Sequence record: MN850568.1
Direction: 5' to 3' (one strand)
Length of the DNA stretch: 42,197 bases
Source of the DNA: Escherichia phage altidsur
Part shown: piece by piece, positions 1 through 42,197 of the stretch
Position numbering within the stretch: the first letter of the stretch is position 1
Layout of the letters: the number at the start of each line of letters is the position of its first letter
Made by a program: the position numbers and the translations under genes
The notes under the pieces: generated by a model
Seen by the model: the letters and a program-made list of their open reading frames with translations, nothing else
Told to the model about the DNA's origin: nothing
Database searches by the model: none

Positions 1-296
1 ATACGTTCGTGCAGCACACCAACATGGTAGCCCGGCAGATGCCCGGCACTGCTGCTGCACTGGGGTGGAGTCGTGATAACGATGCCCAGTTCCAGTTCAT
101 GATGCAGATGGGTTATCAGGCAGGTTCAAGCTGGTATCGTACCGATGGTGCGTACAGCAAACTGGCTGATGCAATCCGTGTTGGCGACCAAGAGAAAGCT
201 GTGCAGGCTCTGGCTGCGACCCCGGCTTATAAGCTGTCGCAGGACGAGCGTAAGCAGTATTACGTCCAAACTCTACTCGCAGGTATGCAGGAATGA
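1..296 (+). CDS. Internal virion protein B, C-terminal end (partial at window start; probable continuation of the ORF that runs off the window 3' end)
   Basis: Open frame from position 3 to the stop at 294-296. The ORF leaving the window at 42197 joins it in frame (2401 + 296 nt = 899 codons). ATGA stop/start overlap with the next gene. Confidence 0.6.
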   Translation, partial: TFVQHTNMVARQMPGTAAALGWSRDNDAQFQFMMQMGYQAGSSWYRTDGAYSKLADAIRVGDQEKAVQALAATPAYKLSQDERKQYYVQTLLAGMQE

Positions 297-3200
297 TTAT
301 CACACAAGAATCGCTCGACAAGTTCATGGCTCCCAAGCAGGGGGCCAACGCTCCCTCGCTGGTTATTCCAGCTCCCGTAAAGACTGCTGACCTCAGCACT
401 CCACTGCAAGATGCCACTCGTCAGGGTGCCGTCGAGCAGTTCGACAAGATGCAGGAACTGGAAGCAACTCCGATGGCCACGGCGTTGAGTGCTTCTGTGA
501 AGAACTGGGACACCACCCAGCTCTTTGATGCCGCGTTCAACAAGCCCACCTTCCAAGCTGACCCGGACTTCAAGCCCAACGAGGCATTGCAGAACGTACA
601 GTTCCCGGTGGGTGCAGATGACCGGACGTTCCTGTTCAAATCCAAATCCATGGACGAGTTCAACTGGCGTACCCAGCAGCTCCAAGAGATGCGTGAGCGT
701 ACCCAGTTGGCTCACACTGCCCCGGTGATGAACGCGGTTCTGCAATTCGCTGACCCGCTGTATCTCGCCACCGACCTGCTCTCGATGGGAGCAGGCACTG
801 CCCTGAAATTAGGTCGCCTCGGAACCGCCGCTGTCGGTGCAGCTTCAACTGCTGCCACTATGGCAGCGGTGGGTAACGAAGCACGCCCAGTGTCTCAGAA
901 CGAGATTATCTTCGCGGCTGCCCTGCACGGGGCAGCCACCACCGCGTTCTATCGTCCCGCCGCCGCGCCAGCTCGTCGCCTTGATGAACTGTCGCCGGAG
1001 GAGTTCGCTGCTGAGATGCAGCGCCGTAACGGTATCGACCCCAACAACCCGCCGCAGTTCGACCCGAACAATGCTATGTCGCCGCTGGCGATGTCGCTCG
1101 GTGTTGGCCCACGCGGTGCCGCTGTCGTTGACGAGGTTCCTGAATCCATCCGGGCTACGGCTCAGCGTGGACTCGACCTCGCACGCCGTGGCGAGCAGAC
1201 CAACCCTAAGCGTCCGTTCCTTGAGTGGTCACTGTTCAAGTCTTTCAGCCAGCACTCTGATGAATCAAGTGCTCTGGCCGGGCGACTGCTGGACGACCCA
1301 CTGAATCCGAACATGACCTCCGCTGCGTCTATCCAGCGCGAGACTCAGGCTCGCTTTGGTGTGCTGCTGAACCAGTATGAGGATACACTGCGCAACGCCC
1401 TGAACGCTGATGGCTGGAGCAACATCCGGCGCTTCCGCGACCCGGTAGGCTATCGCCGGGCGCAGCAGGAGTTTGAAGCTGCTGTGCGTCTGGAGCTGGA
1501 TAAGCGTATGATTGACCCCAGTTTCAAAGGCGCTAACCCAAATGTGGCCAACGCTGCCGACCGACTGGGGGAATACTCCCGTGCCGTTGGCCGTGAGCTG
1601 GAGAACAAGGGTATGGTTGAACCGGGCTTCGTTGAGAAGAACCCGTACTACTACCCGCGCCGGATGAACGTGACCAAGATTGAGCAGGCTGAGCAGTTGC
1701 TCGGCAAGAAACCATTCATGAAGCAGATGACGACTGCTGTGCAGCGCGGTATCGGTACTGACCGTCCGACTGCCAACGTCATTGCCCATGCTATGGTTGA
1801 GCGTGCTCGTCGTAAGGGTTACGGTATCGACAACTCCGGGATGATTATCAACAAGGAGGGTCGTGATGAACTACTCGAAATCATCGCGAACACGAAAGGT
1901 ATGGACGAGGCTGCCAAGGCCCGTGCGTCAGCGCTCCTTCGTGAGTCTGGCTCGGACGCTGGTAGACCGTCAATGCTTAAGAGCCGTATCAACATCGACA
2001 TGATGCACACGCTTGGCCCTAACTTGCAGGTGCGTGACCTGTTCGATGACAGCATCACCAGTATGATGGACAGCTACAACCGACGCATTACTGGGCGACT
2101 GGCTCTGCACGAGGCTGGATTGGGTACTGACGCTGAACGAGCTGCTGCTCGCGAGGCTCTGGCCAAATCTATCCCGGACAGCACTGCACGCCGCAAGGCT
2201 CTCGACCAGTACGACAACATCATGGCCTACTACCAAGGTGCTCCTGTTGGTGAGGAGATGCCGGAGTTCATGCGTCAGTTGTCGGCGCTGACTCAGGCCA
2301 CTGGTCTGGCTGCATCTGGTCTGTGGCAGTTGGTGGAATACGGCACGATGATGCAACGTTTCGGGGCAGTCAATACGTTTCGCGCCATGATGCGTACAAT
2401 TCCCGAAGCACGCGCACTATTTAAGCAAATGAGGGTGTCTACTAAGGAAGGTCGTCAGTTGGCACTTGATGCCGAGGAAGCTCTGACTGCGGCGGTTGCG
2501 AGTGATATTCGTATGCGCCCAATCATGCAGCACTATGACGACATGTTCTCTGCGGATAAGTCTCCGTGGGTCATGCGTATGGAACACCTGCGCGATGCCA
2601 CGATGTTCATCAACATGCAGAAGTACATCCACTTCCACCAGACTCGAACCAACGCTGCGCTCGTAATGCAGACGCTGCGCAAGGCAGCCGAAGGTGATGC
2701 CAAGGCTATTGCAGCCATGAAAACCTACGGTGCCAATGACGCGCTGCTGGCTGACATTCGCAAGCAGGTTGGTACTCATGGCACCAAGCCTGACGCTTGG
2801 GATGAAGGGGTGTTCAATCGCTCCCGCATTGTCATGATGAACGCCATGGATGACGCTATTGTTCGTGCTCGCGTAGGTGAGCTGCCTGCTTTCGCTGAGT
2901 TCAGTACCCTCGGCAAGTTCCTGTTTACGTTCCGTCGATTCGTCGCGGCTACGCACAACAAGACGCTGGTTGGTACTTGGAATCGCGAGGGTGCGCGTGG
3001 TATGGCTACGCTAATGGCGTACCAGTACCCGCTGGCGATGATGGCCACCGCTGCCAACAACGTCATCTCCGGCAAGGCATTCTCTGACCCGGACACTATG
3101 GCCCCGAACAAACTGGCAGGTCAGGCACTGAACTATCTTGGTGCTATCGGCTTTGCCTCTGAGTTCACTGGTGTACTGACCGGGCAGCAGCGTAGCTTCG

Positions 3201-3403
3201 GTGCGCCGGGCCTGCTGTTCCTCGACCGCCTGTATGGTGTCGCCGGGGCCACCTCTGCTACGGCAGGGAGTCTGGCTACTGGTGACATCGACCAAGCCGG
3301 GCATGACGCTCGCAAGGCTGCCGGGAACATCATTCAGGCTCTCCCACTAATCTCCATTGTGCCGGGTGTCCGAGCACTCAACGAAGCAGTTAAGGGCGAA
3401 TAA
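293..3403 (+). CDS. Internal virion (core/ejection) protein C, 1036 aa
   Basis: Very long ORF between the lysozyme-domain internal virion protein and the tailspike, matching T7/phiKMV gene order for the large core protein; ATGA coupling upstream, TAATG coupling downstream. Confidence 0.65.
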   Translation: MIITQESLDKFMAPKQGANAPSLVIPAPVKTADLSTPLQDATRQGAVEQFDKMQELEATPMATALSASVKNWDTTQLFDAAFNKPTFQADPDFKPNEALQNVQFPVGADDRTFLFKSKSMDEFNWRTQQLQEMRERTQLAHTAPVMNAVLQFADPLYLATDLLSMGAGTALKLGRLGTAAVGAASTAATMAAVGNEARPVSQNEIIFAAALHGAATTAFYRPAAAPARRLDELSPEEFAAEMQRRNGIDPNNPPQFDPNNAMSPLAMSLGVGPRGAAVVDEVPESIRATAQRGLDLARRGEQTNPKRPFLEWSLFKSFSQHSDESSALAGRLLDDPLNPNMTSAASIQRETQARFGVLLNQYEDTLRNALNADGWSNIRRFRDPVGYRRAQQEFEAAVRLELDKRMIDPSFKGANPNVANAADRLGEYSRAVGRELENKGMVEPGFVEKNPYYYPRRMNVTKIEQAEQLLGKKPFMKQMTTAVQRGIGTDRPTANVIAHAMVERARRKGYGIDNSGMIINKEGRDELLEIIANTKGMDEAAKARASALLRESGSDAGRPSMLKSRINIDMMHTLGPNLQVRDLFDDSITSMMDSYNRRITGRLALHEAGLGTDAERAAAREALAKSIPDSTARRKALDQYDNIMAYYQGAPVGEEMPEFMRQLSALTQATGLAASGLWQLVEYGTMMQRFGAVNTFRAMMRTIPEARALFKQMRVSTKEGRQLALDAEEALTAAVASDIRMRPIMQHYDDMFSADKSPWVMRMEHLRDATMFINMQKYIHFHQTRTNAALVMQTLRKAAEGDAKAIAAMKTYGANDALLADIRKQVGTHGTKPDAWDEGVFNRSRIVMMNAMDDAIVRARVGELPAFAEFSTLGKFLFTFRRFVAATHNKTLVGTWNREGARGMATLMAYQYPLAMMATAANNVISGKAFSDPDTMAPNKLAGQALNYLGAIGFASEFTGVLTGQQRSFGAPGLLFLDRLYGVAGATSATAGSLATGDIDQAGHDARKAAGNIIQALPLISIVPGVRALNEAVKGE

Positions 3404-5775: not shown

Positions 5776-5784
5776 GGAGAAACC

Positions 5785-8518: not shown

Positions 8519-8529
8519 GGAGAATCTTT

Positions 8530-8724: not shown

Positions 8725-8734
8725 GGAGTAGAGT

Positions 8735-10111: not shown

Positions 10112-10320
10112 GGGCTATCGAAAGCTGGAGCATTGAACAGGCCGTGGGGAGCAATACCCCCGGCTTGAAAATTGCATGTTTATAGTTGCCCCTCCCTCGA
10201 CCCAAATGACCGCGCGTACCCCCATGACGTGTGCGCGGATTAGCCTCGCGACGTGCGCGATATTGCCTCGCGTGTGCTGCGCGGCGCGTCAAGAGGATTG
10301 CCTGCGTGCGGTATAGCTCG

Positions 10321-10710
10321 TGCGTGTCGCGTTTCACTATCGCCGCGCGGTGCTGTCCTGCTGGCTGGCTGTGTGCCTGCTGTGTGGGCTATCGGTGGCG
10401 GTGTGGTGCTGTCCTATTGGGGACGCTCTGCGCTGGCTGCGTGGTGCTGCTGGCTGCGCGTGGTCGGTCGGGTATCTGTCTCTTTTCGTCGTGGTGTGTG
10501 GTGCTGGTGTGTAGCGGTGTGCGGCGTGGTGCTGCCGTCCTGCTGTGTGGTGTGCTGGTCTACTGTCTGCGCCTGCCAGCTCTGCGCGTCATGCTCTGCT
10601 ACTGTCTCTTACTGTCCTACTGCCTTCACTGTCTGCCGTCTGTCAGTCCTACGGTCTGCCATCCGTCATCCGTTCGGCGCTCGCTTGTTTCGGCTGCGCC
10701 GCGCTCGCTC
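10321..10710. other. A-depleted (G/T/C-only) strand-asymmetric tract; candidate genome-terminus / terminal-repeat-associated region
   Basis: By manual count roughly twenty A residues in ~390 nt on the + strand. Because every stop codon contains A, all three + frames stay open, which produces the overlapping Cys/Arg-rich ORFs in the track. Sits between the last late gene and the early promoters. Confidence 0.6.
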
Positions 10711-10730
10711 TGCGTATCTAGCGATACTAT

Positions 10731-10752
10731 ATCACTATAGACACTTTCATAA
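10731..10752 (-). promoter_or_regulatory. Copy of the 22-bp phage promoter-like motif ATGAAAGTGTCTATAGTGATAT, inverted; + strand reads ATATCACTATAGACACTTTCAT
   Basis: Reverse complement is identical over 22 bp to 31211-31232; contains the CTATAG core reminiscent of the CACTATAG core of T7/SP6-type promoters. Confidence 0.45.
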
Positions 10753-10757
10753 TTATC

Positions 10758-10856
10758 TAATGATTACAGTAACTTATAACCTATCTGATAACGGTATTCT
10801 ATCCAGTGTTATGATTATCTAATCAAACTTTAATCCTAATGATTACAGTAACTTAT
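10758..10856. repeat. AT-rich direct repeats (20-bp TAATGATTACAGTAACTTAT at 10758-10777 and 10837-10856, plus duplicated ATTATCTAA)
   Basis: Exact 20-bp duplication 79 bp apart, read directly, immediately downstream of the A-depleted tract and the inverted promoter-like motif. Confidence 0.6.
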
Positions 10857-10877
10857 CACTTTTCTTGAAAATAATAC

Positions 10878-10907
10878 TTGCCAATCTGTTTTGGTTTATG
10901 CTGTAAT
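10878..10907 (+). promoter_or_regulatory. Host sigma70-type promoter candidate (TTGCCA-N18-TGTAAT)
   Basis: -35-like TTGCCA at 10878-10883 and the same TATGCTGTAAT -10 box as the next two promoters. Confidence 0.35.
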
Positions 10908-10984
10908 TCATCTCGCCGGACAACACAGCGTTAACGTGTTGGACGGTGTAGGACGGTAACACTGCTCTTTAACAATCTGGTGTG

Positions 10985-11013
10985 TTGACAAGGCAAGCTC
11001 ACTATGCTGTAAT
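10985..11013 (+). promoter_or_regulatory. Host sigma70-type early promoter (TTGACA-N17-TGTAAT)
   Basis: Perfect -35 TTGACA at 10985-10990, 17-nt spacer, TATGCTGTAAT box; one of three identically spaced copies upstream of the early region. Confidence 0.55.
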
Positions 11014-11121
11014 GCTTCCACGTCAGCCAGCAAGCTAAACAGTCATTGATAAAGACGTTAAAACACACGTAGGCAAGCTGGTACGGTTTAACTATCTCAG
11101 AACGGGCGCTGATTAAATCGG

Positions 11122-11150
11122 TTGACAGGATGAAATGAGTATGCTGTAAT
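11122..11150 (+). promoter_or_regulatory. Host sigma70-type early promoter (TTGACA-N17-TGTAAT)
   Basis: TTGACA at 11122-11127, 17-nt spacer, TATGCTGTAAT box at 11140-11150. Confidence 0.55.
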
Positions 11151-11201
11151 GCACACCAGATTGACAGGGCAGCAAGCCAGTCAGTCAGAAGTAAAAAGTA
11201 G

Positions 11202-11230
11202 TTGACACGCTGAATACGATGTGATGTAAT
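11202..11230 (+). promoter_or_regulatory. Host sigma70-type early promoter (TTGACA-N17-TGTAAT)
   Basis: TTGACA at 11202-11207, 17-nt spacer, GATGTAAT box at 11223-11230. Confidence 0.5.
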
Positions 11231-11687
11231 CAGCACCGAGTTGAAAGGTTGCAAAACAACCTGCTCTGAGTGAACGTAAACTGGCCACGTAGTGTCACGG
11301 TCTCATGGGTATCCGGCGCAGCTAGGAACTGGTGAGAGGCATCGCTGAAAAGCAACGGTATTGCAACAATGCTAACGCCGTAGGGGTAGTGCCTGATGCA
11401 AGGGAACGGAGAAGCGCGATAGACACAGCGCAGTATCAGTAAAATCCCAAACGTCTTATAAGGCGCGGAGTGAAGCGGGTAGGTAGGCAAGCTGGTAACG
11501 GTGAGCCGGACTGCTGGAGGACTCCTGAGAGTGGATGCAGACAATATCCACGGCGCGAAATGGGCGGGGCGATTTTTCAGGGTAGTGAATCCGACAAGCC
11601 AATCAATGCCACTTAGTGCAACATGTACGGCGCGTCACAATGGGTTCACTATCCACCTGAAAATAGCCAACAACTGGAGAAATAACT

Positions 11688-12080
11688 ATGTACCGTATCT
11701 ATGCAAGCGCATATCGTCAGGGCAACGCTGAATGTGTTAATCTGGCGCTTCATTGCAAGGCACTGCGAACGGTGCAGGATATGTTCGGAGTGGTTCCGGT
11801 CACACTGACAGGCAAGTTCGACAATGCGTACGAGTTAAGCATGGTCTTTCCTGTCGATGGAATCTACGAAATCAGGCAGGCTGTTAAGCTGTTCTGTAAA
11901 GCATTCGAACAGGACTGCATCATGGTAGTGACCAAAGATGATGATGCAATCTTCATGGATTCACCATATCCGGGCAAGCCTGCTGGCAAGTTCGTCAGCA
12001 AGACTGAGGCCGAAATGGAAGCCGGGCAGCACACCGCTTGGACTTACGATGGTGAACAATTTTGGGTAGTGGAGGCGTAA
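11688..12080 (+). CDS. Early hypothetical protein, 130 aa
   Basis: First ORF after the ~450-nt leader; GGAGA RBS 8 nt upstream of the ATG. Confidence 0.55.
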   Translation: MYRIYASAYRQGNAECVNLALHCKALRTVQDMFGVVPVTLTGKFDNAYELSMVFPVDGIYEIRQAVKLFCKAFEQDCIMVVTKDDDAIFMDSPYPGKPAGKFVSKTEAEMEAGQHTAWTYDGEQFWVVEA

Positions 12081-17149: not shown

Positions 17150-17183
17150 TCATCTACTCATGCCTGTTATTATTTAGCAGGCA

Positions 17184-17205
17184 TTATGAAGGTGTCTATA
17201 TTGGC
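17184..17205 (+). promoter_or_regulatory. Phage promoter-like motif copy (TTATGAAGGTGTCTATATTGG), preceded by hairpin 17160-17184
   Basis: Matches the 22-bp motif at 31211-31232 in 17 of 20 core positions; perfect 7-bp stem ATGCCTG/CAGGCAT immediately upstream; precedes the gene at 17223. Confidence 0.4.
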
Positions 17206-17222
17206 CAACGTGAGGATGAAAT

Positions 17223-20196: not shown

Positions 20197-20360
20197 AGGG
20201 TCGCAGCTATCGCCGTTGCTCTTGCGGCGGCAGTCTGCTGGCTGAGCAGACCAAGGGCAAGGCCACTGGCAAGACGCTGGTGATTTACGAGTGTGAAAAG
20301 TGTGGAGTAAAGCAGTATGGAAGAACGCACGTATCGAGCGGCACCCTTAAACCAACGTGA
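20193..20360 (+). CDS. Zinc-ribbon mini-protein (55 aa, GTG start; CxC...CxxC)
   Basis: GTG overlapping the upstream TGA stop; four Cys arranged C-S-C ... C-E-K-C; not in the ORF track. Confidence 0.3.
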   Translation: MKGRSYRRCSCGGSLLAEQTKGKATGKTLVIYECEKCGVKQYGRTHVSSGTLKPT

Positions 20361-20508: not shown

Positions 20509-21181
20509 TGCAGAAGTCAAGCGCGTATGGGCAGAGGACATCTGCCGTCTGCTGCAATCACATGAGCTGAACTTTGTGGTTGCCGGGGGAGGGGCAAGGG
20601 ATACAGCGCTGGGTGTTGAGCCGAAGGACTATGACATCGTGGTCTTCGGTTGGGGTGGGGATGTAAGCCGCGTGGTCGGTAGATTGGAATGGTTGGACAC
20701 CAACCTCGAAGCGTATGCCAAGCAGCACAACCTGCCGTATGAGTACATGCCAAGCTACCACGACGCAGCCGAGGGCGGCGACTTCGGTTCCCGTCTGTAC
20801 GGTGTGTTCAAGCTCGGCCCGGTTGACATCATCATTAGTAAATGTGGCTGCTGGTCACAGGTGCTGAGCGAGTTCGACTTCAACCTGAACCAGTTCTACT
20901 TCCCGTCCAGTATCCCGCGATACTCCGGGCAGTACAGCCGTGACCCCGGTGAGTTCATGGCGTACCCGTACGAGCCGAAGCTAACAGCCGAGGACGTGCA
21001 GTGGTATCCGGCGCTGGCCAGTCTGGTTGAAAGCTACGACGACCTGCTGACTCTCCGTGTCTGCCGACCGGATGCCAGCCTGAGTCGTGTGGCCTACATG
21101 CTGGAGAAGCACGAGACACACCGCGAGCGCATCGAAGCATACGTCAATCGTATGCCAGACCATTTGGGTGGCACAGCATAG
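20498..21181 (+). CDS. Pol-beta-superfamily nucleotidyltransferase-like protein (CCA-adding/poly(A) polymerase head-domain motif), 227 aa
   Basis: Motif VAGGGARDTALGVEPKDYDIVVF fits the GGxVRD...DxD signature of class II nucleotidyltransferases, read by eye. Confidence 0.5.
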   Translation: MISNAEVKRVWAEDICRLLQSHELNFVVAGGGARDTALGVEPKDYDIVVFGWGGDVSRVVGRLEWLDTNLEAYAKQHNLPYEYMPSYHDAAEGGDFGSRLYGVFKLGPVDIIISKCGCWSQVLSEFDFNLNQFYFPSSIPRYSGQYSRDPGEFMAYPYEPKLTAEDVQWYPALASLVESYDDLLTLRVCRPDASLSRVAYMLEKHETHRERIEAYVNRMPDHLGGTA

Positions 21182-21191
21182 CGGGGGATGA

Positions 21192-23657
21192 ATGGCAATA
21201 AGAGCACAGGTAATCGACGTTGAGACTGAGAACCATGAGTGGTATGGGGAGCTGGCATCGCCGCGCTGCCCAGATAACTATGTGGTTATGCAGGGCCAGC
21301 GTGACTGTGTGCTGACCAAGGATGGCTGGGTATTCTACGAGCGCGAGGAGTATCGGTACAGTTCTCGTGAGGACTGGTTGCAGAACAAGAGTCTGCACCT
21401 GCATCCTGACACGAACATTCTGGTAGCTCACAACGCGCCGTATGAATTGAGCTGGTGGTTCGAGCATTACGGTGACGAGTTCATTGCCTTCCTCAAACGA
21501 GGTGGCCGTGTATTCTGTACCGCGTATGCTGAGTACCTGCTGACGCATCAGCAATCCCAGTACCCATCCTTGAACGAGACAGCACCGAAGTATGGTGGTA
21601 CTCACAAGGTGGATGCAGTCAAGGCAATGTGGGAGTCAGGCTACCTGACCAGCCAGATTGACCCTGAGCTGCTGAGCGAGTATCTGTCCGGGCCGTCCGG
21701 GGATATTGAGAACACGACCAAGCTGTTCGTTGGTCAGTGGGCTGAACTGACAAAGCAGGGCATGTTGCCGATGGCACTGACCCGCTTCGAAGGTATGCTC
21801 ATGTGGGCGTACATGATGCACGCTGGTCTGCATGTTGACCGTGAGGTAGCCGAGCGCAACCGTCGCGAGTTACAGGATGCAATCAGTGGGCTGACTGAAA
21901 CGCTGCTGAGTTACCTGCCAGCCGACATGCCGAAGGAAGCGCGTGAGCAATTCAAGTTCACGTCAGCTTATCACATGAGCGCCTTCGTGTTCGGTGGTGT
22001 GATGAAGTACAAGGCGCGAGTCGAGCGCCGGGATGCCGAGGGCAATCTCATTTACGTGAAGGTGGATGCACCACTGTTCAAGCGAGGCAAGGACAAGTGG
22101 CTCAAGCATACCAGCGAGTGTGAGTGGGATGACGAGACTGGGTTGTGGTATGACCCGGTTGAGAAGGTACACCAGACTATCTACACCAGCGGCAAGCACA
22201 AGGGCGAGCCGAAGTTTGAGAAGCTGGCTACCGACGAGGTGGATACCAAGTGGGGTGAGGTGCTGTTCCGTATGCCGGGGCTTCTGCGTGTGCAGGACAA
22301 ACGAGCGAAGGAGATTGCAGACAACCTCGAATGGGAAGACCCGAAGAAGCCGGGCGAGTATCTCCGGCGCACAGGTGATTGGGTAGGTAAGCGTAGGCTG
22401 GCCGATGGTTCCCCGGTATTCAGTACGGCGGGTGAGGTGCTGGACATTCTGGCAGCTCGTAAGATTCCCGGCGTGGTGGAGATTGCTGACCGGGCCAAGG
22501 CACAGAAAGACCTCGGCACCTACTACCTCAGCGAGACGTTCGATGAAGAAGGTAACGTGACTGGCCAGTCGGGGATGATGCAGTTCATCCAGCCGGACAG
22601 TATCGTACACCACACCATCAACATGACCGCGACCGAGACGACGCGCTTATCTTCGGCGCGACCGAACAGCCAGAACTTGCCACGTAAAGGTACGAGTAAG
22701 GTTAAGCAGATGTTCACCTCCCGCTTTGGTGAAGGTGGCCGCATCGTTGAAGCTGACTACTCGGCACTGGAAGTGGTGGGGCTGGCCGGGTTCAGTAAGG
22801 ATAAGAACCTGATTCGTGCATTGCTCGACGGTATCGACATGCACTGTATGCGTCTGTCAGCTCAGCTCAACGAGCCATACGAGGACGTGCTTAAGAAGTG
22901 CAAGGATGAATCCCATCCCGACCATGCACGATACAGTCAGATGCGTACTGACATTAAGCCGAAGGCGTTCTCATATCAGTATGGTGCAACAGCGCGAGGT
23001 ATTGCGTACTCGACTGGTTGCTCTGAGGAAGAAGCTCAAGCGTTCATCGACAACGAGAAGGGTCTGTTCCCGGAAGTTGAAGAATGGTTCGACGCGGTTA
23101 TCTTCCCTGCCGTAGAGAAAAGTGGACAGAGCAATGTATTCAAGGAGCAGGACGAGAACGGGCGGTGGCAGGTGTATCGCCGTGGTCACTTCCGTTCGCC
23201 GGGTGGAACTTGTTATTCATTCCGTCAGTACGAGAAATGGAACAAGGCGGCGCGTGCTCACCTGATGGAATACAAACCAACTCAGATGCGTAACTATCCC
23301 ATTCAGGGTGAGACAGCATTTTGGGTACAGGGAATCGGTGGCTTGCTGTTCCGCTGGCTGCTATCGAATGACTTCTTTGGTGGGCGTGTGGTTCCCATCA
23401 ACCAAGTGCATGACGCATTCTATTTCGACATTGCACCTGACTGCCCTCACGAGTTCTTCGTTGGACTCAAGGCAATCATGGAGAGCATCCCGGAATACTA
23501 TAACCACGTATGGCCAGAGTATAACCTGACAGTGCCGTTCCCGGCAGAGGTGGAAGCAGGGCCAAGCATGTACGAGAAGCACCACGTAGAGACGACAGCC
23601 GATGAAGTGCTGGAGTTTAAGAGACAATTCCTGACGAGTAAGGGTATCGCATTATGA
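21192..23657 (+). CDS. DNA polymerase, family A, with 3'-5' exonuclease domain, 821 aa
   Basis: Exo I DVETE near the N-terminus; motif A DYSALEV, motif B RTDIKPKAFSYQYGA, motif C QVHDAF. Confidence 0.9.
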   Translation: MAIRAQVIDVETENHEWYGELASPRCPDNYVVMQGQRDCVLTKDGWVFYEREEYRYSSREDWLQNKSLHLHPDTNILVAHNAPYELSWWFEHYGDEFIAFLKRGGRVFCTAYAEYLLTHQQSQYPSLNETAPKYGGTHKVDAVKAMWESGYLTSQIDPELLSEYLSGPSGDIENTTKLFVGQWAELTKQGMLPMALTRFEGMLMWAYMMHAGLHVDREVAERNRRELQDAISGLTETLLSYLPADMPKEAREQFKFTSAYHMSAFVFGGVMKYKARVERRDAEGNLIYVKVDAPLFKRGKDKWLKHTSECEWDDETGLWYDPVEKVHQTIYTSGKHKGEPKFEKLATDEVDTKWGEVLFRMPGLLRVQDKRAKEIADNLEWEDPKKPGEYLRRTGDWVGKRRLADGSPVFSTAGEVLDILAARKIPGVVEIADRAKAQKDLGTYYLSETFDEEGNVTGQSGMMQFIQPDSIVHHTINMTATETTRLSSARPNSQNLPRKGTSKVKQMFTSRFGEGGRIVEADYSALEVVGLAGFSKDKNLIRALLDGIDMHCMRLSAQLNEPYEDVLKKCKDESHPDHARYSQMRTDIKPKAFSYQYGATARGIAYSTGCSEEEAQAFIDNEKGLFPEVEEWFDAVIFPAVEKSGQSNVFKEQDENGRWQVYRRGHFRSPGGTCYSFRQYEKWNKAARAHLMEYKPTQMRNYPIQGETAFWVQGIGGLLFRWLLSNDFFGGRVVPINQVHDAFYFDIAPDCPHEFFVGLKAIMESIPEYYNHVWPEYNLTVPFPAEVEAGPSMYEKHHVETTADEVLEFKRQFLTSKGIAL

Positions 23658-28749: not shown

Positions 28750-31182
28750 GTGGACTTACTTGCTGAGCAGATTCGACTTGAAGAAGAAGCACGAGCCAGA
28801 CACCGCGAGGGCTGGCTGGACAATATCAAAGAAGCCATGGCTAGTGGCCGGGCCGGGTCGGTGCCGTTGCTCCAGCGTATGATGGTAGAGGCGTATCCTC
28901 TTGTCGAAGCTGCGATGCAAGAAACCCTGAACGAAACGACCCGTGGGTACGGTGCGCAGTACCGGACGTACATGCGTGAGATTGGCACCAAGGCGTGTGC
29001 CTCTCTTGCACTGAGCATGGCGGTGTCCGGTGCTGCGTCGGAGCAGGCGGTGCTGAGTCTGCTTAAGAGTATGGGTAAAGCGCTGATGGCTGAGGTGGTG
29101 TATCTCCGGGCGAAGCAGACCGGGCCACAGCAGGCAGCGTACATGGAGCGCGTGAAGCAGGACGTTAAGAAGTCCCGGTCGAAGTCAGCCAACCACGTCT
29201 ACAACAAAGCGCGTGCGTCGGCGGCGAACGTTGGGGTCGAGATTGATGTGCTGCCGCAGCGTGCTCTGATTACCATTGGCAAGCTGATGATGAAATGCGT
29301 GGAGCCAACTGGGTTGGTGGCTACGATTCGCGTCGGCGGCAACCAACGTCAGCGCGGTACGGCACACTTCGCACTGCATGAGGATGTGCTGGCTACGATG
29401 AACGACTGGCTGGACATGCCGCGTGCTGATGGCATGTGCTGCCCACCGTTGATTATCCCACCGAAGCAGATTGCACCGAACGGTCGCAGCGGTATGTGGC
29501 ACTCGGATGGGCAGGCGGCGATGTACCGGGTAATGAGTCGCATGAACCACAAAGGGTATCGTGCATTGAACGTTGACCCGACCCCTGTTATAGAGCCGTG
29601 TATGATGCTCAGCAGCGTTCCGTACCGAATTAACCCAATGGTACTGGAGTTCCTGAGAACGAACCGTACAGGCGTTATGGGGCTGCCTGTGCCGCCTCGT
29701 GAGCCTAAGCTCCCATTCACCATCCCGGCTGGTGTCAGCTTCGCGCAGTACATCAGCAAGTTCCCACCAGAGATGCAGCAGCAGATGGATGCCGAGGCTC
29801 ATGAGTACAAGGTTAAGACTCGCTTGTATTACAATGAGTTGCGTAAGTTCACGTCGCAGATGCTGGCGCTGAATGGTGCAGTCAAAGAGGCAGAGCGCTA
29901 TGCGCATTATGACCGGGTATACCTCCCGACCTACGCTGATACACGGGGCCGAATTTATTATTCTTCGACCCTTAACCCTCAGTCCATCGACGCAGTGCGA
30001 GCGCTGCTCGAACTTGCTGAACCAGTGGCTCTCGGAAGTGAGGGGTTATTCTGGCTCAAGGTACATGTTGCGAATTGCTTCGGCTACGACGCGACAGACT
30101 TCGAAGACCGGGCGGCGTGGACGGACAAGACACTCCCCCGACTACGTGAGGCGTGCCGTCTTCCAGAGGCATTTGATTCGTTCTGGTCAGAGGCCGATAG
30201 CCCTATCAGCGCGTGGGCTGCATCTGTTGAACTCATTCGCGCTATCGACTCAGGAAATCCTGCGGCTTATCCCTGCCGAGTGGTTACACAATGGGACGCT
30301 ACCTGTTCAGGATTACAGCACCTCAGTGCGATGTTACGAGATGAGGTTGGAGGTGCTGCTGTCAATCTTATCGACAGCGTGGGAAGAAAAGCAGACATAT
30401 ATCTCAAGACGGCAGCAGCGGCGATGCAGGCTCTTGAAGAAAGTGAGGCAGCAGCGCCGACGCAAATGGGTACGTGGCTTGTTAGCATCGGCATCGTTCG
30501 GGCTATGGCCAAGAAGCCAGTGATGACCTACGTGTACGGGGCAACCCGGCATGGTATGGTTGATTACTACTGCCTGTATCTGCGTGAGAACCGGGTCAAG
30601 CTGCCGGACGGCAAGAGCCTGCTGGAGTGTGCGCAGTTCATCGCAGAGTTCATGTGGAACGCTATCCCTCGCGTTGTGCCGAAGGCGGCTGAGCTGATGG
30701 CATGGTTGCAGGCTATCGCAGTTGAGGCGGCAGCCAACGGCGAGTACGTGGAAATCATCGCACCGTCAGGGTTGCGGGTGGTTAACCTGTACCAAGCCAG
30801 TAAGGAGACGATGCTCAACAACATCAACCTCATGGGTATCCACAGCATTAAGCTGCGTGAGTATCTGGACAAGCCGGACAGCCGGAAGTGTGCTGCTGCG
30901 ATTGCTCCGAATTTCGTACACGCTATGGATGCCAGCCACATGATGAAGGTGCTGTGGGAGATGTGGAACAACGGGGTGTACATGGTATCCATCCATGACT
31001 CGTTCGGTGTTGCGGCGGCACATGCTGGTCTGCTGCATAAGGTCATTCGTGAAAAGTTCGTACAGATGTATGAGCAACATGACCCAATTCAACAGCTTGC
31101 GGTAAGATACAATGCTGTTGCACCAGAACGGGGTAATCTGGACATCCAGCTTGTGAAACAATCAAGCAAGTTTTTCTGCTAA
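28750..31182 (+). CDS. DNA-directed RNA polymerase, T7-like single-subunit, 810 aa
   Basis: Motif WDATCSGLQHLSAMLRD (compare T7 DGSCSGIQHFSAMLRD) and IHDSFG catalytic motif; GTG start; located directly upstream of the structural module. Confidence 0.9.
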   Translation: MDLLAEQIRLEEEARARHREGWLDNIKEAMASGRAGSVPLLQRMMVEAYPLVEAAMQETLNETTRGYGAQYRTYMREIGTKACASLALSMAVSGAASEQAVLSLLKSMGKALMAEVVYLRAKQTGPQQAAYMERVKQDVKKSRSKSANHVYNKARASAANVGVEIDVLPQRALITIGKLMMKCVEPTGLVATIRVGGNQRQRGTAHFALHEDVLATMNDWLDMPRADGMCCPPLIIPPKQIAPNGRSGMWHSDGQAAMYRVMSRMNHKGYRALNVDPTPVIEPCMMLSSVPYRINPMVLEFLRTNRTGVMGLPVPPREPKLPFTIPAGVSFAQYISKFPPEMQQQMDAEAHEYKVKTRLYYNELRKFTSQMLALNGAVKEAERYAHYDRVYLPTYADTRGRIYYSSTLNPQSIDAVRALLELAEPVALGSEGLFWLKVHVANCFGYDATDFEDRAAWTDKTLPRLREACRLPEAFDSFWSEADSPISAWAASVELIRAIDSGNPAAYPCRVVTQWDATCSGLQHLSAMLRDEVGGAAVNLIDSVGRKADIYLKTAAAAMQALEESEAAAPTQMGTWLVSIGIVRAMAKKPVMTYVYGATRHGMVDYYCLYLRENRVKLPDGKSLLECAQFIAEFMWNAIPRVVPKAAELMAWLQAIAVEAAANGEYVEIIAPSGLRVVNLYQASKETMLNNINLMGIHSIKLREYLDKPDSRKCAAAIAPNFVHAMDASHMMKVLWEMWNNGVYMVSIHDSFGVAAAHAGLLHKVIREKFVQMYEQHDPIQQLAVRYNAVAPERGNLDIQLVKQSSKFFC

Positions 31183-31207
31183 TAAATAGTGATATGTATC
31201 ATTGACT

Positions 31208-31233
31208 TATATGAAAGTGTCTATAGTGATATG
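31208..31233 (+). promoter_or_regulatory. 22-bp phage promoter-like motif ATGAAAGTGTCTATAGTGATAT, flanked by direct repeats of TAGTGATATGTATCA
   Basis: Identical over 22 bp to the reverse complement of 10731-10752; partial copies at 17184-17205 and 31498-31519; lies in the gap between the RNA polymerase gene and the structural genes. Confidence 0.5.
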
Positions 31234-31293
31234 TATCACGCTACCGGTAGCCCCGTCAGTGGCGGGGGTTACTGCCACTAAGAGAGGATTGTA

Positions 31294-31485
31294 ATGGGTA
31301 AAGAATCTCCATTAGAAAGAGTTACCTTCACGAAAGCTCAGTTAGCTCTACTGGAAAAACACTTCGGAACTTGGGCGGCGGTAGGTAAGACTGTAACCCC
31401 TGATACCAACCTGCCACTGATTAACAGAGAAGCTGGTAAGCAGGATGTGCTGGACTTCATCCGTGAACGTGTCATTGGGTTGTAG
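31294..31485 (+). CDS. Small hypothetical protein, 63 aa
   Basis: ORF with AGAGAGGA RBS downstream of the promoter-like motif. Confidence 0.5.
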   Translation: MGKESPLERVTFTKAQLALLEKHFGTWAAVGKTVTPDTNLPLINREAGKQDVLDFIRERVIGL

Positions 31486-31497
31486 GGAGAGTTGTCG

Positions 31498-31519
31498 TTA
31501 TGAAAGTGTCTACTATGGG
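31498..31519 (+). promoter_or_regulatory. Phage promoter-like motif copy (TTATGAAAGTGTCTACTATGGG)
   Basis: First 13 core positions identical to the 31211-31232 motif; overlaps the first ATG of the next ORF. Confidence 0.35.
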
Positions 31520-31919
31520 AAATACATCACACACGACAATGCCACTCGACATTCGCCGTGCTGTGGCCGAGGGCATTCAAGCTGAGCGGCCATGGTCTGA
31601 CTTATCTCCCGATGTGATTGTTGACAGCATGTACGAGGCCACCGCCTCCGGTTGTGTTGACGTTTACATCACTGACGATGACGACAGCCTCATGGCCGTT
31701 GCACACATCGGCAGGTTATTCGATATTCATGTGGGCGAGATGGTGGTCGTTATGGCCTCATACGTCTGGCCCCCGTACAGAAACCGTGGAGTGATGCGTG
31801 CCATCCTCCGTGTACTCAAAGACGTGGCCCGTTCAGAGGGTGTACGTTGGTGCGGTTACTCCCATATGGTGCGGCCTTACGTTCAGGAGTACCGCTTCAT
31901 TGATTTGGAGAAACCGTAA
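31515..31919 (+). CDS. Hypothetical protein, possibly GNAT-like acetyltransferase, ~134 aa
   Basis: Motif YRNRGVMRAILRVL resembles GNAT motif A; start placed at the second ATG because the first (31500) lies inside the promoter-like motif. Confidence 0.45.
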   Translation: MGNTSHTTMPLDIRRAVAEGIQAERPWSDLSPDVIVDSMYEATASGCVDVYITDDDDSLMAVAHIGRLFDIHVGEMVVVMASYVWPPYRNRGVMRAILRVLKDVARSEGVRWCGYSHMVRPYVQEYRFIDLEKP

Positions 31920-32181: not shown

Positions 32182-33747
32182 ATGACTCAAGACGCGCAGA
32201 ACGTCAGCTATGAGTCTCTGTGGCAGAAGTACCGGGATAGCAACGTTGTCACCAAAGCGCGGGAGTACAGCCGCTATACACTGGCTAAGCTGGTGAGCGA
32301 GTACGACCGCAGTGACGTGGACGACATGAACCGCCAGCAGATTACTCGTGATTACCAGTCTGTCGGCGCTCTGCTCGTCAACAACCTAGTTGCCAAACTG
32401 GGTGAGTTCCTGTTCCCGGCTTCCGCTCGATTCGTGAAGCTGAAATTAAACAAGGTGTCTGACCAACAGCGGCAGTCTATGTCGCAAGTTAATCAGGCGC
32501 TTATCACTATTGAAAAGGCCATCGTAGACAAAGCCAAAGAGAATGGCGGCTACGCTGACCTGCTCCAAGCAATTGCCCAACAAGCTGTGACCGGAAACGC
32601 CGCGCTGTACCGCGATATGGAAACTGGTTCGTACCGAGTGTACGGATTGGAATCCTTCGTGGTGCAGCGCGACGGTCGTGGCGTTGTGGTGGATGCTATC
32701 GTGAAGGAGCGCATCCAGTGGGATTCTCTGCCCAAGGACTTTCAGAATGAACTGAACTCCAAAGGCTTCCGCTGCGGTGGGAACAAACGCGTATGGCTGT
32801 ACACTCGTGTGCTCCGCGTCCAGAAGGACAGCGGCACGTACGGCTACGAAATCACGCAGCAGATTGGTAACTACCAAGGTTGCGTCTATACCCCCGGTAA
32901 GGATTACTACCCTGAAAAAGTCTGCCCATGGTTATTCCCAGTGTGGTCTTTGAAGTCTGGCGAGCATTACGGTCGCGGGATTGTCGAAGACCACGCTGGG
33001 GATTTCGCACGTCTGTCCATGCTGTCTGAGCATTCGGCTCTGTACATGCAGGAAGCGCTGCGCGTGCTGTGGATGCTCACTGGTTCTGGCGGCAACGCCG
33101 ATGACATTGAGAGCGCAGAGACTGGTCAGGTCATTCCACTCCAGAACGGCACATCGCTGTCCGGCTTGGAGGTCGGGGATTACCAGAAAGTTCAACAGGC
33201 CCGTGACGAAATCAACCAGATTGTGCAGCGATTGGCGCAAGCCTTCATGTACACTGGCGAGTTCCGTGACTCCGAACGTACCACCGCCACCGAAGTGCAG
33301 CAGGTAGCAACCAGCGCCGAACGTGGGCTGGGTGGCCCGTACTCAATGCAGGCTAAGACCCTCCAGATTCCTCTGGCGTACGTCCTGCTCGCGGAGATTG
33401 ACGAGTCCACCGTACCTGACATCGTAGGCAATATCCTGTCGCTTCAAGTTGAAGCTGGTCTGGATGCCCTCGGTCGCAGCATTGAAGCAGAGACGCTGAT
33501 TCGTGCGCTCTCTGACTCGCAGGCAGCAATGGTTGCTGTCCAAAATATTAATGGCGTTGCTAACACCATCGACCCACAGAAAGTCCTTGAGGTTATCTTC
33601 GCATCCAACGGTGTTGCGCTTGACGACTATCGTAAGTCGGCACAAGACTTGGCCCAAGAAGGGCAGGCCATCGACAATGCAGCTCAGGCTGCCGCAGGCG
33701 TTCAGCCGGGCGCAGTCGATGTAGCGCCTAACATCGCACAGATTTAA
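32182..33747 (+). CDS. Portal (head-tail connector) protein, 521 aa
   Basis: Size and position (first large gene of the structural block, followed by scaffold and capsid) match T7 gp8-type portals. Confidence 0.8.
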   Translation: MTQDAQNVSYESLWQKYRDSNVVTKAREYSRYTLAKLVSEYDRSDVDDMNRQQITRDYQSVGALLVNNLVAKLGEFLFPASARFVKLKLNKVSDQQRQSMSQVNQALITIEKAIVDKAKENGGYADLLQAIAQQAVTGNAALYRDMETGSYRVYGLESFVVQRDGRGVVVDAIVKERIQWDSLPKDFQNELNSKGFRCGGNKRVWLYTRVLRVQKDSGTYGYEITQQIGNYQGCVYTPGKDYYPEKVCPWLFPVWSLKSGEHYGRGIVEDHAGDFARLSMLSEHSALYMQEALRVLWMLTGSGGNADDIESAETGQVIPLQNGTSLSGLEVGDYQKVQQARDEINQIVQRLAQAFMYTGEFRDSERTTATEVQQVATSAERGLGGPYSMQAKTLQIPLAYVLLAEIDESTVPDIVGNILSLQVEAGLDALGRSIEAETLIRALSDSQAAMVAVQNINGVANTIDPQKVLEVIFASNGVALDDYRKSAQDLAQEGQAIDNAAQAAAGVQPGAVDVAPNIAQI

Positions 33748-39796: not shown

Positions 39797-42197
39797 ATGG
39801 CTACTATGCGTGACCAGCGTGGCGCTAACCTTAATGCTGCGCAGCAGGGATTACCAAGTGTGCAGCAGGCGCAGACTCCGTTTAGTCTCGCAGGCCGCGA
39901 TACTCGCATCGACACGTTTCCTACCGAGTCCATTCAACGCGTACTGAACATGGCCAGCGCACTTGCTGGCCGTGTCACTGAGCGTGCGAACGAGGAAGAA
40001 TACCTCAAGGGGGCTAACGCCGCCGCGAGTGGCAAGGCTGTCGAGGATTTGGATTCGAACTGGCTTACCGCTCAGTTCCAGAAAGCTGGTTACAACGACC
40101 AGTACAAACGAATGGAAATGGCGAAGGTCGCCTCAGACATCTCGGCTAACATGCCGCAGTATGCGAAGATGGCACCCGACGAGTTCTTGAAGGTGGTGGA
40201 CGAGAAGACCACTGGCCTGTTCGAGAACACTGATGGTATGACGCTGAACGGGCGTAAGTCACTGCTGGAGAACCAGCTCACGTTCAGCAACACCCTTATC
40301 CGTACGCAGGCTGCCCAGCATGGTAAGTATCTGGTTGAGCAGCGTGCGGCGATGTACAACACGCAGGGTAACACTCTAGTTACTCTGGCGGCTCAGGCCA
40401 AGGCCACTGGCGATGGCGGCGCGTACGCTAACGCTACGGCAGCAACCATGGCATGGGCCAAGTCTATTCTGGCAGACGACAAGCTGCCACTGGAGACTCG
40501 CCGGACGCAGGTGACTTCCATGATGGGGCTGATGCTCCAGCAGGATTTGCGTACCCCGGTCGAGACTGCTGTGAACTCCGGGCTATTCAACGAGCTGCCT
40601 GCCGACGATTTGGCCAAGCTGCAAGGTCAGATTCGTGAATCCAAATCTCGTACTGAGGTTCAGGATAACATGGGTCTGCTGGCGCAGAAGGGTCAACTTG
40701 ATGCGCGTCAGGCAGTATTCGGTGACGTTACGCCGGAACAGTACACGCAGACGCTCCAGCAGATGGTGGACAATAAGCTGATTAGCGCTGGTGGTTTCAG
40801 CTCTGCTATCGAGTCCTTCTACAAGGATTACGCCAAGCAAGCCAAGGCCAGCCAGCTCGGTCAGGCTTACGCCACCGGGAACCAGACGTACATGCTCCAG
40901 CAGGGCGCGAGTGAGCAGGATGGTGCTGACGCATTCATCAAGGCTCGCATGAAGCAACCGGGCGCGACGGCAAGTTCCGTGGCGTTCGACCTGCTGCAAG
41001 TGGGTGCGCAGACTGGCTTCCCTTCTGCGTACAAGTCTGCTGCCAAGTTGATTGAACCATCCCTGTCGAACTTCGGCACCGTGGACGAAATGAACCCGGA
41101 CGCTGCCCGTACCGTAACCGGGCTGATTGACCGCGTAACTGTGGCCGAGAATCAGGGTGACAAGACTGCATGGACTAAGCTCCTGTCAGGTCTGTCAGAA
41201 GAAAACCAAGAGAAGATGGTGTACATGCGCGAGCAGATTAAGGCTGGCCGCACCATCGACCAAGCTGGTCAGGGTTACATCAAGCAGCAGCAGGACTACG
41301 CTGGCTTGACCCCGGCACAGAAATCTCAAATCCTCACGCAGCGTCAATCTGACGTTAACTCTGTGGTGAATGGGCTGGAGGCTCAGGGCTTCCTCTCTCG
41401 CACTTGGCAGGGTCTGGCTGGTCTGTTCTCAGATACTCAGCAGAACCTGTTCCAAGCACGCGTCGCATCTGGTGACATTACTGCCGCGCAGGAAATGTCG
41501 GAGGTGTCTGCCGCGTACCGCGAGGAGCTGCAAGCTGTAGTCCTCAAGAACCCGAACGTGACGAAGGATGGTATGGAAGCACTCGCATCTGCGAAGCTGG
41601 CCAACCGTGTCCTGCGCGTTGGTGAAACCACATTCAGCCCCGGCTCTGTGCTTATCGCACCGAGAGGCCAAACTGTTCAGTCTATGCTCGGCTTGCCTGC
41701 TGACGTAGCCCCCGACCGTATCGGTCGCGCTATCGCCGCACTTGACCAGACCAAGGCACCAGAAGGCTTCGAGTCGTCCTACTCGTTTATGCCAGATGGC
41801 TCTCTGAACGTTCAGTTCTTCAACAAGCAAGGTGACGTTTCCCCGAACTCGGTACGCATTCTGCCGCAGCTCGTGCAGGAACGCATCCGTGAAGACGACC
41901 GTGCAGCAGCCACTGCCAACAACGAAGTGTATGGCGACGGGAAACTCTTTGTTGATAAGACCAGTAACGTGGGTATCCGCGTGAATGGCGTTAATACTGC
42001 TGGGGTAGACGAGCAGCGTATGCTTGTTGCCCGTGGCAAACTGATTGACTTCGAAGGTATCCGCAGCACCACCTATCGCGACAGCACTGGTGTACAGACT
42101 AACGGTGTCGGTATCTCCGACCGTAGCCCGTACTTTGCCCAAGGCCAAGCGTCTGGTATGAAAGGCGGTACTGAGTGGTCGCCGCGAACTATCCACG
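39797..42197 (+). CDS. Internal virion protein B with C-terminal lysozyme-like domain (5' part; runs off the window and appears to continue at 1-296)
   Basis: Uninterrupted + frame from the ATG at 39797 to the window end (800 codons); near the end, FEGIRSTTYRDSTGVQTNGVGIS fits the E-G-x-R...Y-x-D...G...T-x-G-x-G lysozyme motif. phiKMV gp36 is known to carry a C-terminal lysozyme domain. Confidence 0.7.
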   Translation, partial: MATMRDQRGANLNAAQQGLPSVQQAQTPFSLAGRDTRIDTFPTESIQRVLNMASALAGRVTERANEEEYLKGANAAASGKAVEDLDSNWLTAQFQKAGYNDQYKRMEMAKVASDISANMPQYAKMAPDEFLKVVDEKTTGLFENTDGMTLNGRKSLLENQLTFSNTLIRTQAAQHGKYLVEQRAAMYNTQGNTLVTLAAQAKATGDGGAYANATAATMAWAKSILADDKLPLETRRTQVTSMMGLMLQQDLRTPVETAVNSGLFNELPADDLAKLQGQIRESKSRTEVQDNMGLLAQKGQLDARQAVFGDVTPEQYTQTLQQMVDNKLISAGGFSSAIESFYKDYAKQAKASQLGQAYATGNQTYMLQQGASEQDGADAFIKARMKQPGATASSVAFDLLQVGAQTGFPSAYKSAAKLIEPSLSNFGTVDEMNPDAARTVTGLIDRVTVAENQGDKTAWTKLLSGLSEENQEKMVYMREQIKAGRTIDQAGQGYIKQQQDYAGLTPAQKSQILTQRQSDVNSVVNGLEAQGFLSRTWQGLAGLFSDTQQNLFQARVASGDITAAQEMSEVSAAYREELQAVVLKNPNVTKDGMEALASAKLANRVLRVGETTFSPGSVLIAPRGQTVQSMLGLPADVAPDRIGRAIAALDQTKAPEGFESSYSFMPDGSLNVQFFNKQGDVSPNSVRILPQLVQERIREDDRAAATANNEVYGDGKLFVDKTSNVGIRVNGVNTAGVDEQRMLVARGKLIDFEGIRSTTYRDSTGVQTNGVGISDRSPYFAQGQASGMKGGTEWSPRTIH

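Follow-up and report, generated by a model that had tools for sequence, protein, structure and literature searches.

The genome of Escherichia phage altidsur (MN850568.1), analysed here as a window of 42,197 nt, contains a 22 bp sequence present in two identical copies on opposite strands, one of which lies between the gene for a phage RNA polymerase and the structural genes. This raises the question of what reads the sequence, and in which direction. An earlier note on this DNA, made from the letters alone, suggested a family of promoters for the phage RNA polymerase. That suggestion is supported by the conserved positions of the copies, by their concerted variation among related phages, by the layout of the mapped promoters of phage LUZ19 and by the annotation of phage LIMEzero. 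It is highly likely that the motif is the cognate promoter of the single-subunit RNA polymerase encoded at 28750–31182 of this Bonnellvirus genome, at which this enzyme would initiate transcription.

Genome setting

The window belongs to the genus Bonnellvirus (Autographiviridae; J8-65/LIMEzero group); in the region compared by megablast, its identity to Escherichia phage aldrigsur is 97%. Its sequence is a circular permutation of the linear genome. The main features of this setting are:

293 to 10111: structural and lysis genes
After the structural and lysis genes: noncoding stretch of 1.6 kb
11688: start of the early genes
28750..31182, + strand: single-subunit RNA polymerase gene (810 aa), the presumed reader of the motif
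31294: structural genes resume, directly past the RNA polymerase gene

Terminal repeats are annotated in the type phage, J8-65, at 1–259 and 40723–40981. Judged by homology, the window genome would have its physical left end near 10197 and the end of its terminal repeat near 10400–10460. The noncoding block at 10197–10720, which follows the endolysin gene, is 60–67% GC and has a + strand nearly without A (AT skew reaching −0.85). The terminal repeat of J8-65 aligns to the left part of this block (TCGACCC... at 10197). A unique element within the block, GGGTATCTGTCTCTTTT at 10470–10486 (+), is present in 15 out of 15 Bonnellvirus genomes, and in J8-65 its start is 12 nt beyond the right edge of the annotated repeat. 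It resembles ATCTGTT, the T7 class II pause signal at the concatemer junction.

Further to the right are TTGACA-N14-TG(C/A)TGTAAT units at 10984–11015, 11121–11152 and ~11203–11232 (+). These look like strong host-type early promoters and fail the strict σ70 criterion, the second hexamer being TGTAAT. The strict σ70 scan found no promoter in 10000–11800 and none in 31000–31700. Between the promoter-like units and the first gene, a homologue of SAM hydrolase/methyltransferase, is a noncoding region of ~450 nt (11230–11687) that is conserved throughout the genus and could be a structured leader or processing region. An Rfam scan of the whole window, 11230–11687 included, identified no family above threshold.

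Five copies of the motif

The 22-mer ATGAAAGTGTCTATAGTGATAT occurs exactly twice in the window, at 31211–31232 (+) and 10729–10750 (−), and no match to it was found in any of 100 shuffled sequences. The exact repeat on two strands that had been described is therefore real, and counted as an inverted repeat its length is 23 nt (31210–31232 and 10729–10751). The + strand copy had been placed correctly, although the minus strand copy, given as 10731–10752, was 2 nt off. Likewise, the partial rightward copies exist but had been shifted by 2 nt, their true positions being 17186–17207 (ATGAAGGTGTCTATATTGGCCA) and 31500–31521 (ATGAAAGTGTCTACTATGGGAA).

A search of the whole window with the 13-nt core ATGAARGTGTCTA, allowing at most one mismatch, gave 5 matches against 0.07 expected. 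A short sequence repeated far above chance, in a genome encoding its own polymerase, is a property of T7-type cognate promoters. Where four copies had been listed there are thus five, the overlooked one being at 2429–2441 (+). The description of the copies as all intergenic or at gene starts fits the four that were listed and fails for the fifth, which is inside ORF 293..3403. The five sites, numbered from the left end of the linear genome, and the hairpin that precedes one of them are:

Site 1, 10729..10751, − strand: full copy in the left-end noncoding region, pointing left to the terminal repeat and genome end; core from 10750 down to 10736; predicted start between G10735 and G10733
Hairpin, 17160..17185, + strand: ATGCCTGTTATTATTTAGCAGGCAT, immediately upstream of site 2 (−14.1 kcal/mol, z = −4.05)
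Site 2, 17186..17203, + strand: ATGAAGGTGTCTATATTG, directly after the strong hairpin
Site 3, 31210..31232, + strand: full copy, 29 nt past the RNA polymerase stop codon and upstream of the structural-gene block; core ATGAAAGTGTCTATA at 31211–31225 (+); predicted start between G31226 and G31228
Site 4, 31500..31517, + strand: ATGAAAGTGTCTACTATG, its ATG being the start codon of a 139-aa gene (31500..31919)
Site 5, 2429..2446, + strand: ATGAGGGTGTCTACTAAG, inside the internal-virion-protein gene 293..3403

Four of the five copies (17186, 31211, 31500 and 2429) are on the gene strand, ahead of DNA-metabolism or structural genes, and the fifth is antisense. This arrangement, upstream of and co-oriented with the middle and late blocks, is that of T7-type promoters, with an antisense fifth copy as in LUZ19. 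Site 2 is positioned 5' of a 67-aa ORF at 17223, which is followed by the primase, helicase and DNA polymerase genes. A terminator is annotated at the place in LIMEzero homologous to the hairpin (7255–7284), and the hairpin probably closes the early region, as a terminator or processing structure. The full + strand copy at site 3 does lie between the polymerase stop codon (31182) and the next ORF (31294), as had been reported, and site 4 is a second promoter-like copy 289 nt downstream of it. Sites 4 and 5 are both within coding sequence and are unlike sites 1 to 3 past the core (CTACTAWGG versus CTATAKTG), therefore they may be weaker or inactive. Site 1 is ~540 nt from the inferred left end, at the border between the A-depleted GC-rich block and an AT-rich block.

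Conserved positions and concerted variation

The comparative set consisted of 14 Bonnellvirus genomes, scanned with the pattern ATGAA[AG]G-NNN-CT[AG]T, and LIMEzero. The window and 13 of the 14 genomes have the pattern at three conserved sites (1, 2 and 3); the post-polymerase copy of Lidtsur, ATGAAAGTAACTGAA, falls just outside it. All five positions are common to the 14 relatives and LIMEzero, with the core ATGARRG-NNN-CTA and an invariant G 17 nt past the A of the ATG. Site 3 keeps its position and its type-specific block in 14 relatives. The minus orientation and the position of site 1 are kept in all 14 (at 548 in J8-65, to the right of the repeat at 1–259) and in LIMEzero (at 656).

Within the conserved core there is a variable block, which is TGT in 8 genomes (the window and 7 relatives), TGA in ROV85, RZ4 and glasur, CTA in Kc261 and usur, and TAA, with CTGT, in J8-65 and Lidtsur. 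Within each genome the block is the same at almost every site. One-base departures occur at secondary sites of J8-65 and Lidtsur, and site 5 of J8-65 has diverged. At site 2 the phages of the GTGA type have ATGAAGGTGACTATA and those of the GCTA type ATGAAAGCTACTATA. The change extends into coding sequence: the N-terminus of the 139-aa protein that begins at site 4 is MKVS here, MKVT in the GTGA phages and MKAT in the GCTA phages. Site 5 also covaries, with ATGAGGGCTACTA in Kc261 and usur and ATGAGAGTGACTA in ROV85, RZ4 and glasur, and the encoded MRVS becomes MRVT or MRAT (VS to VT or AT). A look-alike at 8735, ATGAAACTGTCTC (ATGAACTGTCTC-type, at the spanin start codon), served as a negative control and is identical across all promoter types.

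LIMEzero belongs to a different genus and its polymerase is 70% identical; it has the five-site layout with its own version of the motif, [T/G]ATGAAGGCAAGCACTAAGG. The copies are at 656 (−), 7294, 20330, 20740 and 33866. The copy at 20740 is the start of ORF36 and is the counterpart of site 4, and that at 33866 is inside ORF45 and is the counterpart of site 5. An identical multi-base change at five unlinked sites, with the flanks unchanged, suggests selection by one co-evolving reader.

Direction of reading

In the window's clade both full copies are alike on either side of CTATAG, and for this reason the direction of firing had previously been left ambiguous. It can now be fixed by comparison with more distant copies. 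In J8-65, Lidtsur and LIMEzero the copies have only the ATGAAAG-side half in common. Sites 2, 4 and 5 likewise share only the ATGARRG-block-CT half, the other side being divergent. In addition, the G located 17 nt past the A of the ATG is invariant in 13 out of 13 aligned sites from three phages. Since only the 5' half is shared and the G is invariant, the element reads from ATGAAAG toward the G. A conserved upstream region with an initiating purine at a fixed distance, followed by transcribed sequence that varies, is the asymmetric anatomy of T7-type promoters.

The element is predicted to be ~18 bp, with the consensus (T/A)ATGARRG-NNN-CTA-NNNN-G and the ATGARRG end upstream. The variable block of 3–5 nt is proposed to be the specificity determinant. 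Initiation is expected at or just before the invariant G, 15–17 nt past the A of the ATG. At site 3 the start would be either G31226, which fits the T7-like CTATA|G pattern, or G31228, which is the invariant G.

The polymerase and its specificity loop

The polymerase encoded in the window aligns with T7 RNA polymerase over nearly the full length (E = 9e-58). It is 98.8% identical to that of aldrigsur, 76.3% to that of J8-65 and 70.4% to that of LIMEzero. More distant are the polymerases of LUZ19 (~31%), KP34 (~32%), Dev-CD-23823 (27.5%) and T7 (~26%). The segment that aligns with the promoter-reading loop of T7 is:

30796..30858, + strand: loop-coding segment, polymerase residues 683–703 (ASKETMLNNINLMGIHSIKLR), aligned to the T7 specificity loop (residues 738–758)

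By promoter type, the loop sequences are TMLNNINLMGIHS, IALNNINLMGIHG, SPM-HLHLMGVHQ, and TTM-GIKLMGVHA or AAM-GLNLMGVHG, and that of LIMEzero is TSM-RLNLLGVHA. The position aligned to R746 of T7 is LNN, M-H, M-G and M-R by promoter type. Polymerases of the GTGT and GCTA types are 90.6% identical overall and only 50% identical in the 18-aa loop, which is among the most divergent 0.8% of alignment windows. The loop is a divergence outlier only where the GTGT or GTGA type is compared with the GCTA type (rank 0.008); between GTGT and GTGA it is unremarkable (83% identical, rank 0.29). J8-65 and Lidtsur have the same promoter type, yet their loops differ at 6 of 17 positions. The association of loop and promoter is drawn from few clades and is confounded by shared ancestry. 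Covariation of the specificity loop thus gives partial support to the pairing of this polymerase with the motif, and as a proof of the pairing it was rejected, given the unremarkable loops of the GTGT and GTGA types and the different loops of J8-65 and Lidtsur.

Comparison with known promoters

The promoters of phiKMV-type polymerases had been regarded as poorly defined. This is out of date following the work on KP34 in 2019 (PMC6834552), LUZ19 in 2024 (PMC10914365) and CD23823 in 2025 (PMC12272871). In LUZ19, ONT-cappable-seq (long-read 5'-end mapping) identified four phage-specific promoters, P001, P007, P008 and P009, with the motif GgtTATGTCACacACAnnGG. One of these is on the opposite strand in the early region, two are directly past the polymerase gene and one is in the structural region, and this layout is kept in 15 other Phikmvvirus species (PMC10914365).

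We located the LUZ19 motif at 736–748 (−), 21118 (+), 21315 (+) and 35593 (+). The first of these is between the terminal repeat (1–472) and the annotated σ70 promoters (913 onward). The copy at 21118 is 8 nt past the polymerase gene, with that at 21315 ~200 nt further downstream, and the copy at 35593 is inside gp37, an internal-virion-protein homologue with an endolysin domain. Four of the five positions in the window (sites 1, 3, 4 and 5) match the mapped LUZ19 starts. The two phages also share the genome type, a polymerase gene that ends the middle region, a small number of promoters per genome and TATG near the 5' end of the motif. The motifs are otherwise unrelated in sequence, the polymerases are ~31% identical, and the window has an extra copy ahead of the genes for DNA metabolism. 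Transcript evidence backs the LUZ19 sites, those of the window being predicted from sequence.

The GenBank record of LIMEzero (NC_015585) carries the label 'putative phage specific promoter' at 7294–7313 and 20330–20349, the positional counterparts of sites 2 and 3. These elements follow the skeleton of the window motif (ATGAAGG, variable block, ACTAAGG), with CAAGC in place of TGTCT as the variable block; the two polymerases share 70% identity. The record has these two sites only; those at 656 (−), 20740 and 33866 were found in the present analysis.

The strong promoter of KP34, T(A/G)ATGTTACAGGAGTA, has been validated in vitro and is found at 475–490, at 22197–22212 just past the polymerase gene, and at 33721–33736 in the structural region (PMC6834552). 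The same three-location logic (left end, past the polymerase gene, structural region) is seen in the window, as is a 5' TAATG/TATG element. However, the left-end copy of KP34 is on the + strand, the core differs and the polymerases are ~32% identical. The window motif does not match the validated 16-nt KP34 promoter (TRATGTTACAGGAGTA), with TATG alone in common.

The promoter of Dev-CD-23823, AATGTATACCCCTATATACAC, has been validated in vitro with A as +1 (PMC12272871). It shares the skeleton (A/T)ATG-N7-CTATA, one natural variant being TATGTATACCCCTATAGACAC, and one copy is just past the polymerase gene. The differences are a polymerase that is 27.5% identical, a total of six copies and a left-end copy that points rightward. 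Past the polymerase gene of Dev-CD-23823, at 19321 (−) and 19334 (+), is a divergent back-to-back promoter pair, one of which is antisense into the gene. The register in which the window motif aligns with the KP34 and CD23823 promoters is uncertain, the polymerases being only ~27–32% identical.

Compared with the promoters of T7, SP6 and T3 (e.g. TAATACGACTCACTATAGGGAGA), the motif similarly has ~17 bp upstream of the initiating G, an initiation region of CTATAG or ACTAAGG and a specificity block around −6 to −10, and promoter and loop may co-evolve here as well. The sequence from −17 to −8 is unrelated, the T7 polymerase is ~26% identical, and the window has 5 copies rather than 12–18. T7 is not known to have an antisense promoter copy at the genome end. 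The literature searched describes no promoters for Bonnellvirus, and reports no RNA or in vitro transcription data for the genus.

The leftward copy at the genome end

Site 1 (10729–10751, −) is identical to site 3 (31210–31232, +), making it a copy of the putative late-promoter motif on the strand opposite to all genes. It is positioned between the left terminal repeat, the boundary of which is inferred by homology in the window, and the host-type early promoters. The same order is present in J8-65 (repeat 1–259, motif 548–534 (−), TTGACA units from ~793) and in LIMEzero (motif 656 (−), annotated host promoters from 801). Strand and position are those of P001, the antisense promoter of LUZ19, and the leftward copy would be its counterpart. 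Antisense transcripts from the LUZ19 promoter reach the right end (PMC10914365).

Transcription from the leftward copy would cross the terminal repeat and, on concatemers, enter the right end of the preceding genome. Its most likely role would be to insulate the early region, by directing polymerase head-on at late transcription that passes through the concatemer junction, and this follows the hypothesis offered for LUZ19 (PMC10914365). A role in end replication or end processing is also possible. With this copy, the unusual antisense left-end promoter of LUZ19 would extend beyond the Pseudomonas phages to enterobacterial relatives, which argues for an ancient arrangement kept by selection over a peculiarity of LUZ19.

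Alternative explanations

A likeness of the motif to the core of T7 and SP6 promoters had been noted, and the element could be read on the opposite strand. A promoter ATATCACTATAG-ACAC would then fire rightward from 10729 into the early genes and leftward from 31232, antisense to the polymerase gene. The reverse strand does carry CACTATAG, as in T7 and SP6 promoters, and in the window's clade the similarity of sites 1 and 3 extends on that side as GYGATAC(T)ATATCACTATAG. Such a rightward promoter, placed ahead of the early ones, would be akin to phiOL of T7. The CACTATAG side is, however, unconserved in J8-65, Lidtsur and LIMEzero and at sites 2, 4 and 5. Four of the five copies would fire against genes, and the left-end copy in LUZ19 is the antisense one. 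The conserved part would be transcribed, with no conserved upstream region left for binding, and for that reason the likeness to T7 and SP6 is taken to be incidental and was misleading; firing from the opposite strand is very improbable. It is yet more improbable that the copies are shared translation starts of small proteins (ATG AAA GTG TCT, encoding MKVS) or relics of duplicated gene starts. An ATG begins every copy, that of site 4 is a genuine start codon, and some records call genes from the motif ATG (usur_19; J8-65 gp11). The left-end copy, though, stops after 7 codons, and the ORF from site 3 ranges from 12 to 88 aa among the relatives and is frame-shifted in glasur. The ATG of site 2 is 37 nt upstream of the start of ORF 17223 and out of frame with it, site 5 is in the middle of a 1036-aa gene, and the look-alike at 8735, a real start codon, does not covary.

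That the sequence is a chance or neutral repeat without function, such as a recombination scar, can be given almost no credence. By themselves the 22-mers are a single pair, but none is expected by chance, five positions are kept in two genera, and each clade has an identical multi-base substitution at every site with the flanking motif bases fixed. The comparative data already contradict such a reading. Concerted change of this kind needs merely some co-evolving trans-acting factor, and another DNA-binding protein of the phage (a transcription regulator, or a replication or packaging factor) could in principle be that factor. A short dyad, GTGATA-nn-TATCRC, just past the core of sites 1 and 3 would suit such a protein, and the association with the specificity loop of the polymerase is partial. 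The dyad is nevertheless absent from sites 2, 4 and 5, from J8-65 and from LIMEzero. The element is asymmetric with an invariant G at a fixed distance, as for an initiation site. Four of its positions match mapped LUZ19 promoters, and the promoter layout of KP34 is similar. In the course of the analyses above, which dealt with the motif and the polymerase, no candidate regulator gene came up. Binding by another protein is therefore considered unlikely.

Proposed transcription programme and significance

With the motif read as the promoter of the phage polymerase, early and middle genes, among them the gene for the phage polymerase, would be transcribed by the host enzyme. The phage polymerase would then start at 17186, boosting expression of the DNA-metabolism genes and of its own gene. 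It would also start at 31211, 31500 and 2429, to transcribe the structural, packaging and lysis genes.

The motif very probably adds a new example to a known class of signal, the phage polymerase promoters. If true, this is a solid but unsurprising gain in annotation, and were it wrong the cost would be small. For a phage polymerase family not described in large-scale promoter mining, it supplies a specific promoter that can be tested. The combination of clade-specific blocks and closely related polymerases makes these promoters candidate orthogonal transcription parts. At the two sites located in genes (4 and 5), a regulatory signal would be dictating amino-acid changes in the overlapping coding sequence.

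A bolder reading has two parts, which as a joint proposal are tentative. One is that the polymerases and promoters of Bonnellvirus and LIMEzero form a natural gradation with at least five specificities, each distinct from the others. The blocks TGTCT, TGACT, CTACT, TAACT and CAAGC, with polymerases that are 70–91% identical, may represent this gradation. Were it so, at least one switch, that from TGT to CTA, would be traceable to a handful of residues in the specificity loop, and ready-made orthogonal transcription pairs would be available. The other part is that the leftward promoter, conserved from the Pseudomonas phiKMV phages to the enterobacterial phages and located beside a T7-like pause motif at the margin of the terminal repeat, may be essential at the concatemer junction, whether for insulation, end replication or packaging.

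Sequence features beside the promoter copies

Several other features in the vicinity of the copies were considered. A host σ70 promoter at site 3 was rejected, the TTGACT at 31202 being only 14 nt from TATAGT and the strict scan being empty. The 5' hairpin GUGAUA-nn-UAUCRC was also rejected as a functional part, with z ~0 against shuffled sequences and no counterpart at the other sites or in the other genera.

The sequence just past the core of site 3 is duplicated right behind the polymerase stop codon, forming a local direct repeat, ATAGTGATATGTATCA, at 31186–31201 and 31224–31239 (+). Most of the closest relatives of the window have the upstream copy, which Kc261, usur and glasur lack. The leader that separates site 3 from the first late gene (31240–31293, +; GCTACCGGTAGCCCCGTCAGTGGCGGGG...) opens with ~30 nt that are identical in the 12 relatives with the CTATAGTGATA core. 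Folded as a whole, the leader reaches −26.7 kcal/mol (z = −1.9), and it may stabilise the mRNA or take part in its processing.

A direct repeat, CTAATGATTACAGTAACTTAT, with copies at 10757–10786 and 10836–10865 (+), lies in AT-rich sequence immediately right of the leftward copy and looks like the strong promoter of KP34, TAATGTTACAGGAGTA. Changes in its first copy are seen in LF82-23, Ec1-ASingh, BHUENT7 and RZ4. The KP34-like sequence within it, TAATGATTACAGTAAC (10758 and 10837), was rejected as the main promoter: it has two copies, at the left end only and none near the late genes, and the first is altered in several relatives.

Genes are annotated from the motif ATG in some records, as with usur_19 (20844–21110) and J8-65 gp11 (5664–5903). 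In both, starts further downstream that have ribosome-binding sites are better, and the annotated starts are probably over-extended. The glasur record (MN850583) has as its position 1 the 3' part of the left-end motif (TATCACTATAG...), with the core running from 21 down to 7, and this may be a coincidence of assembly or a boundary in read coverage.
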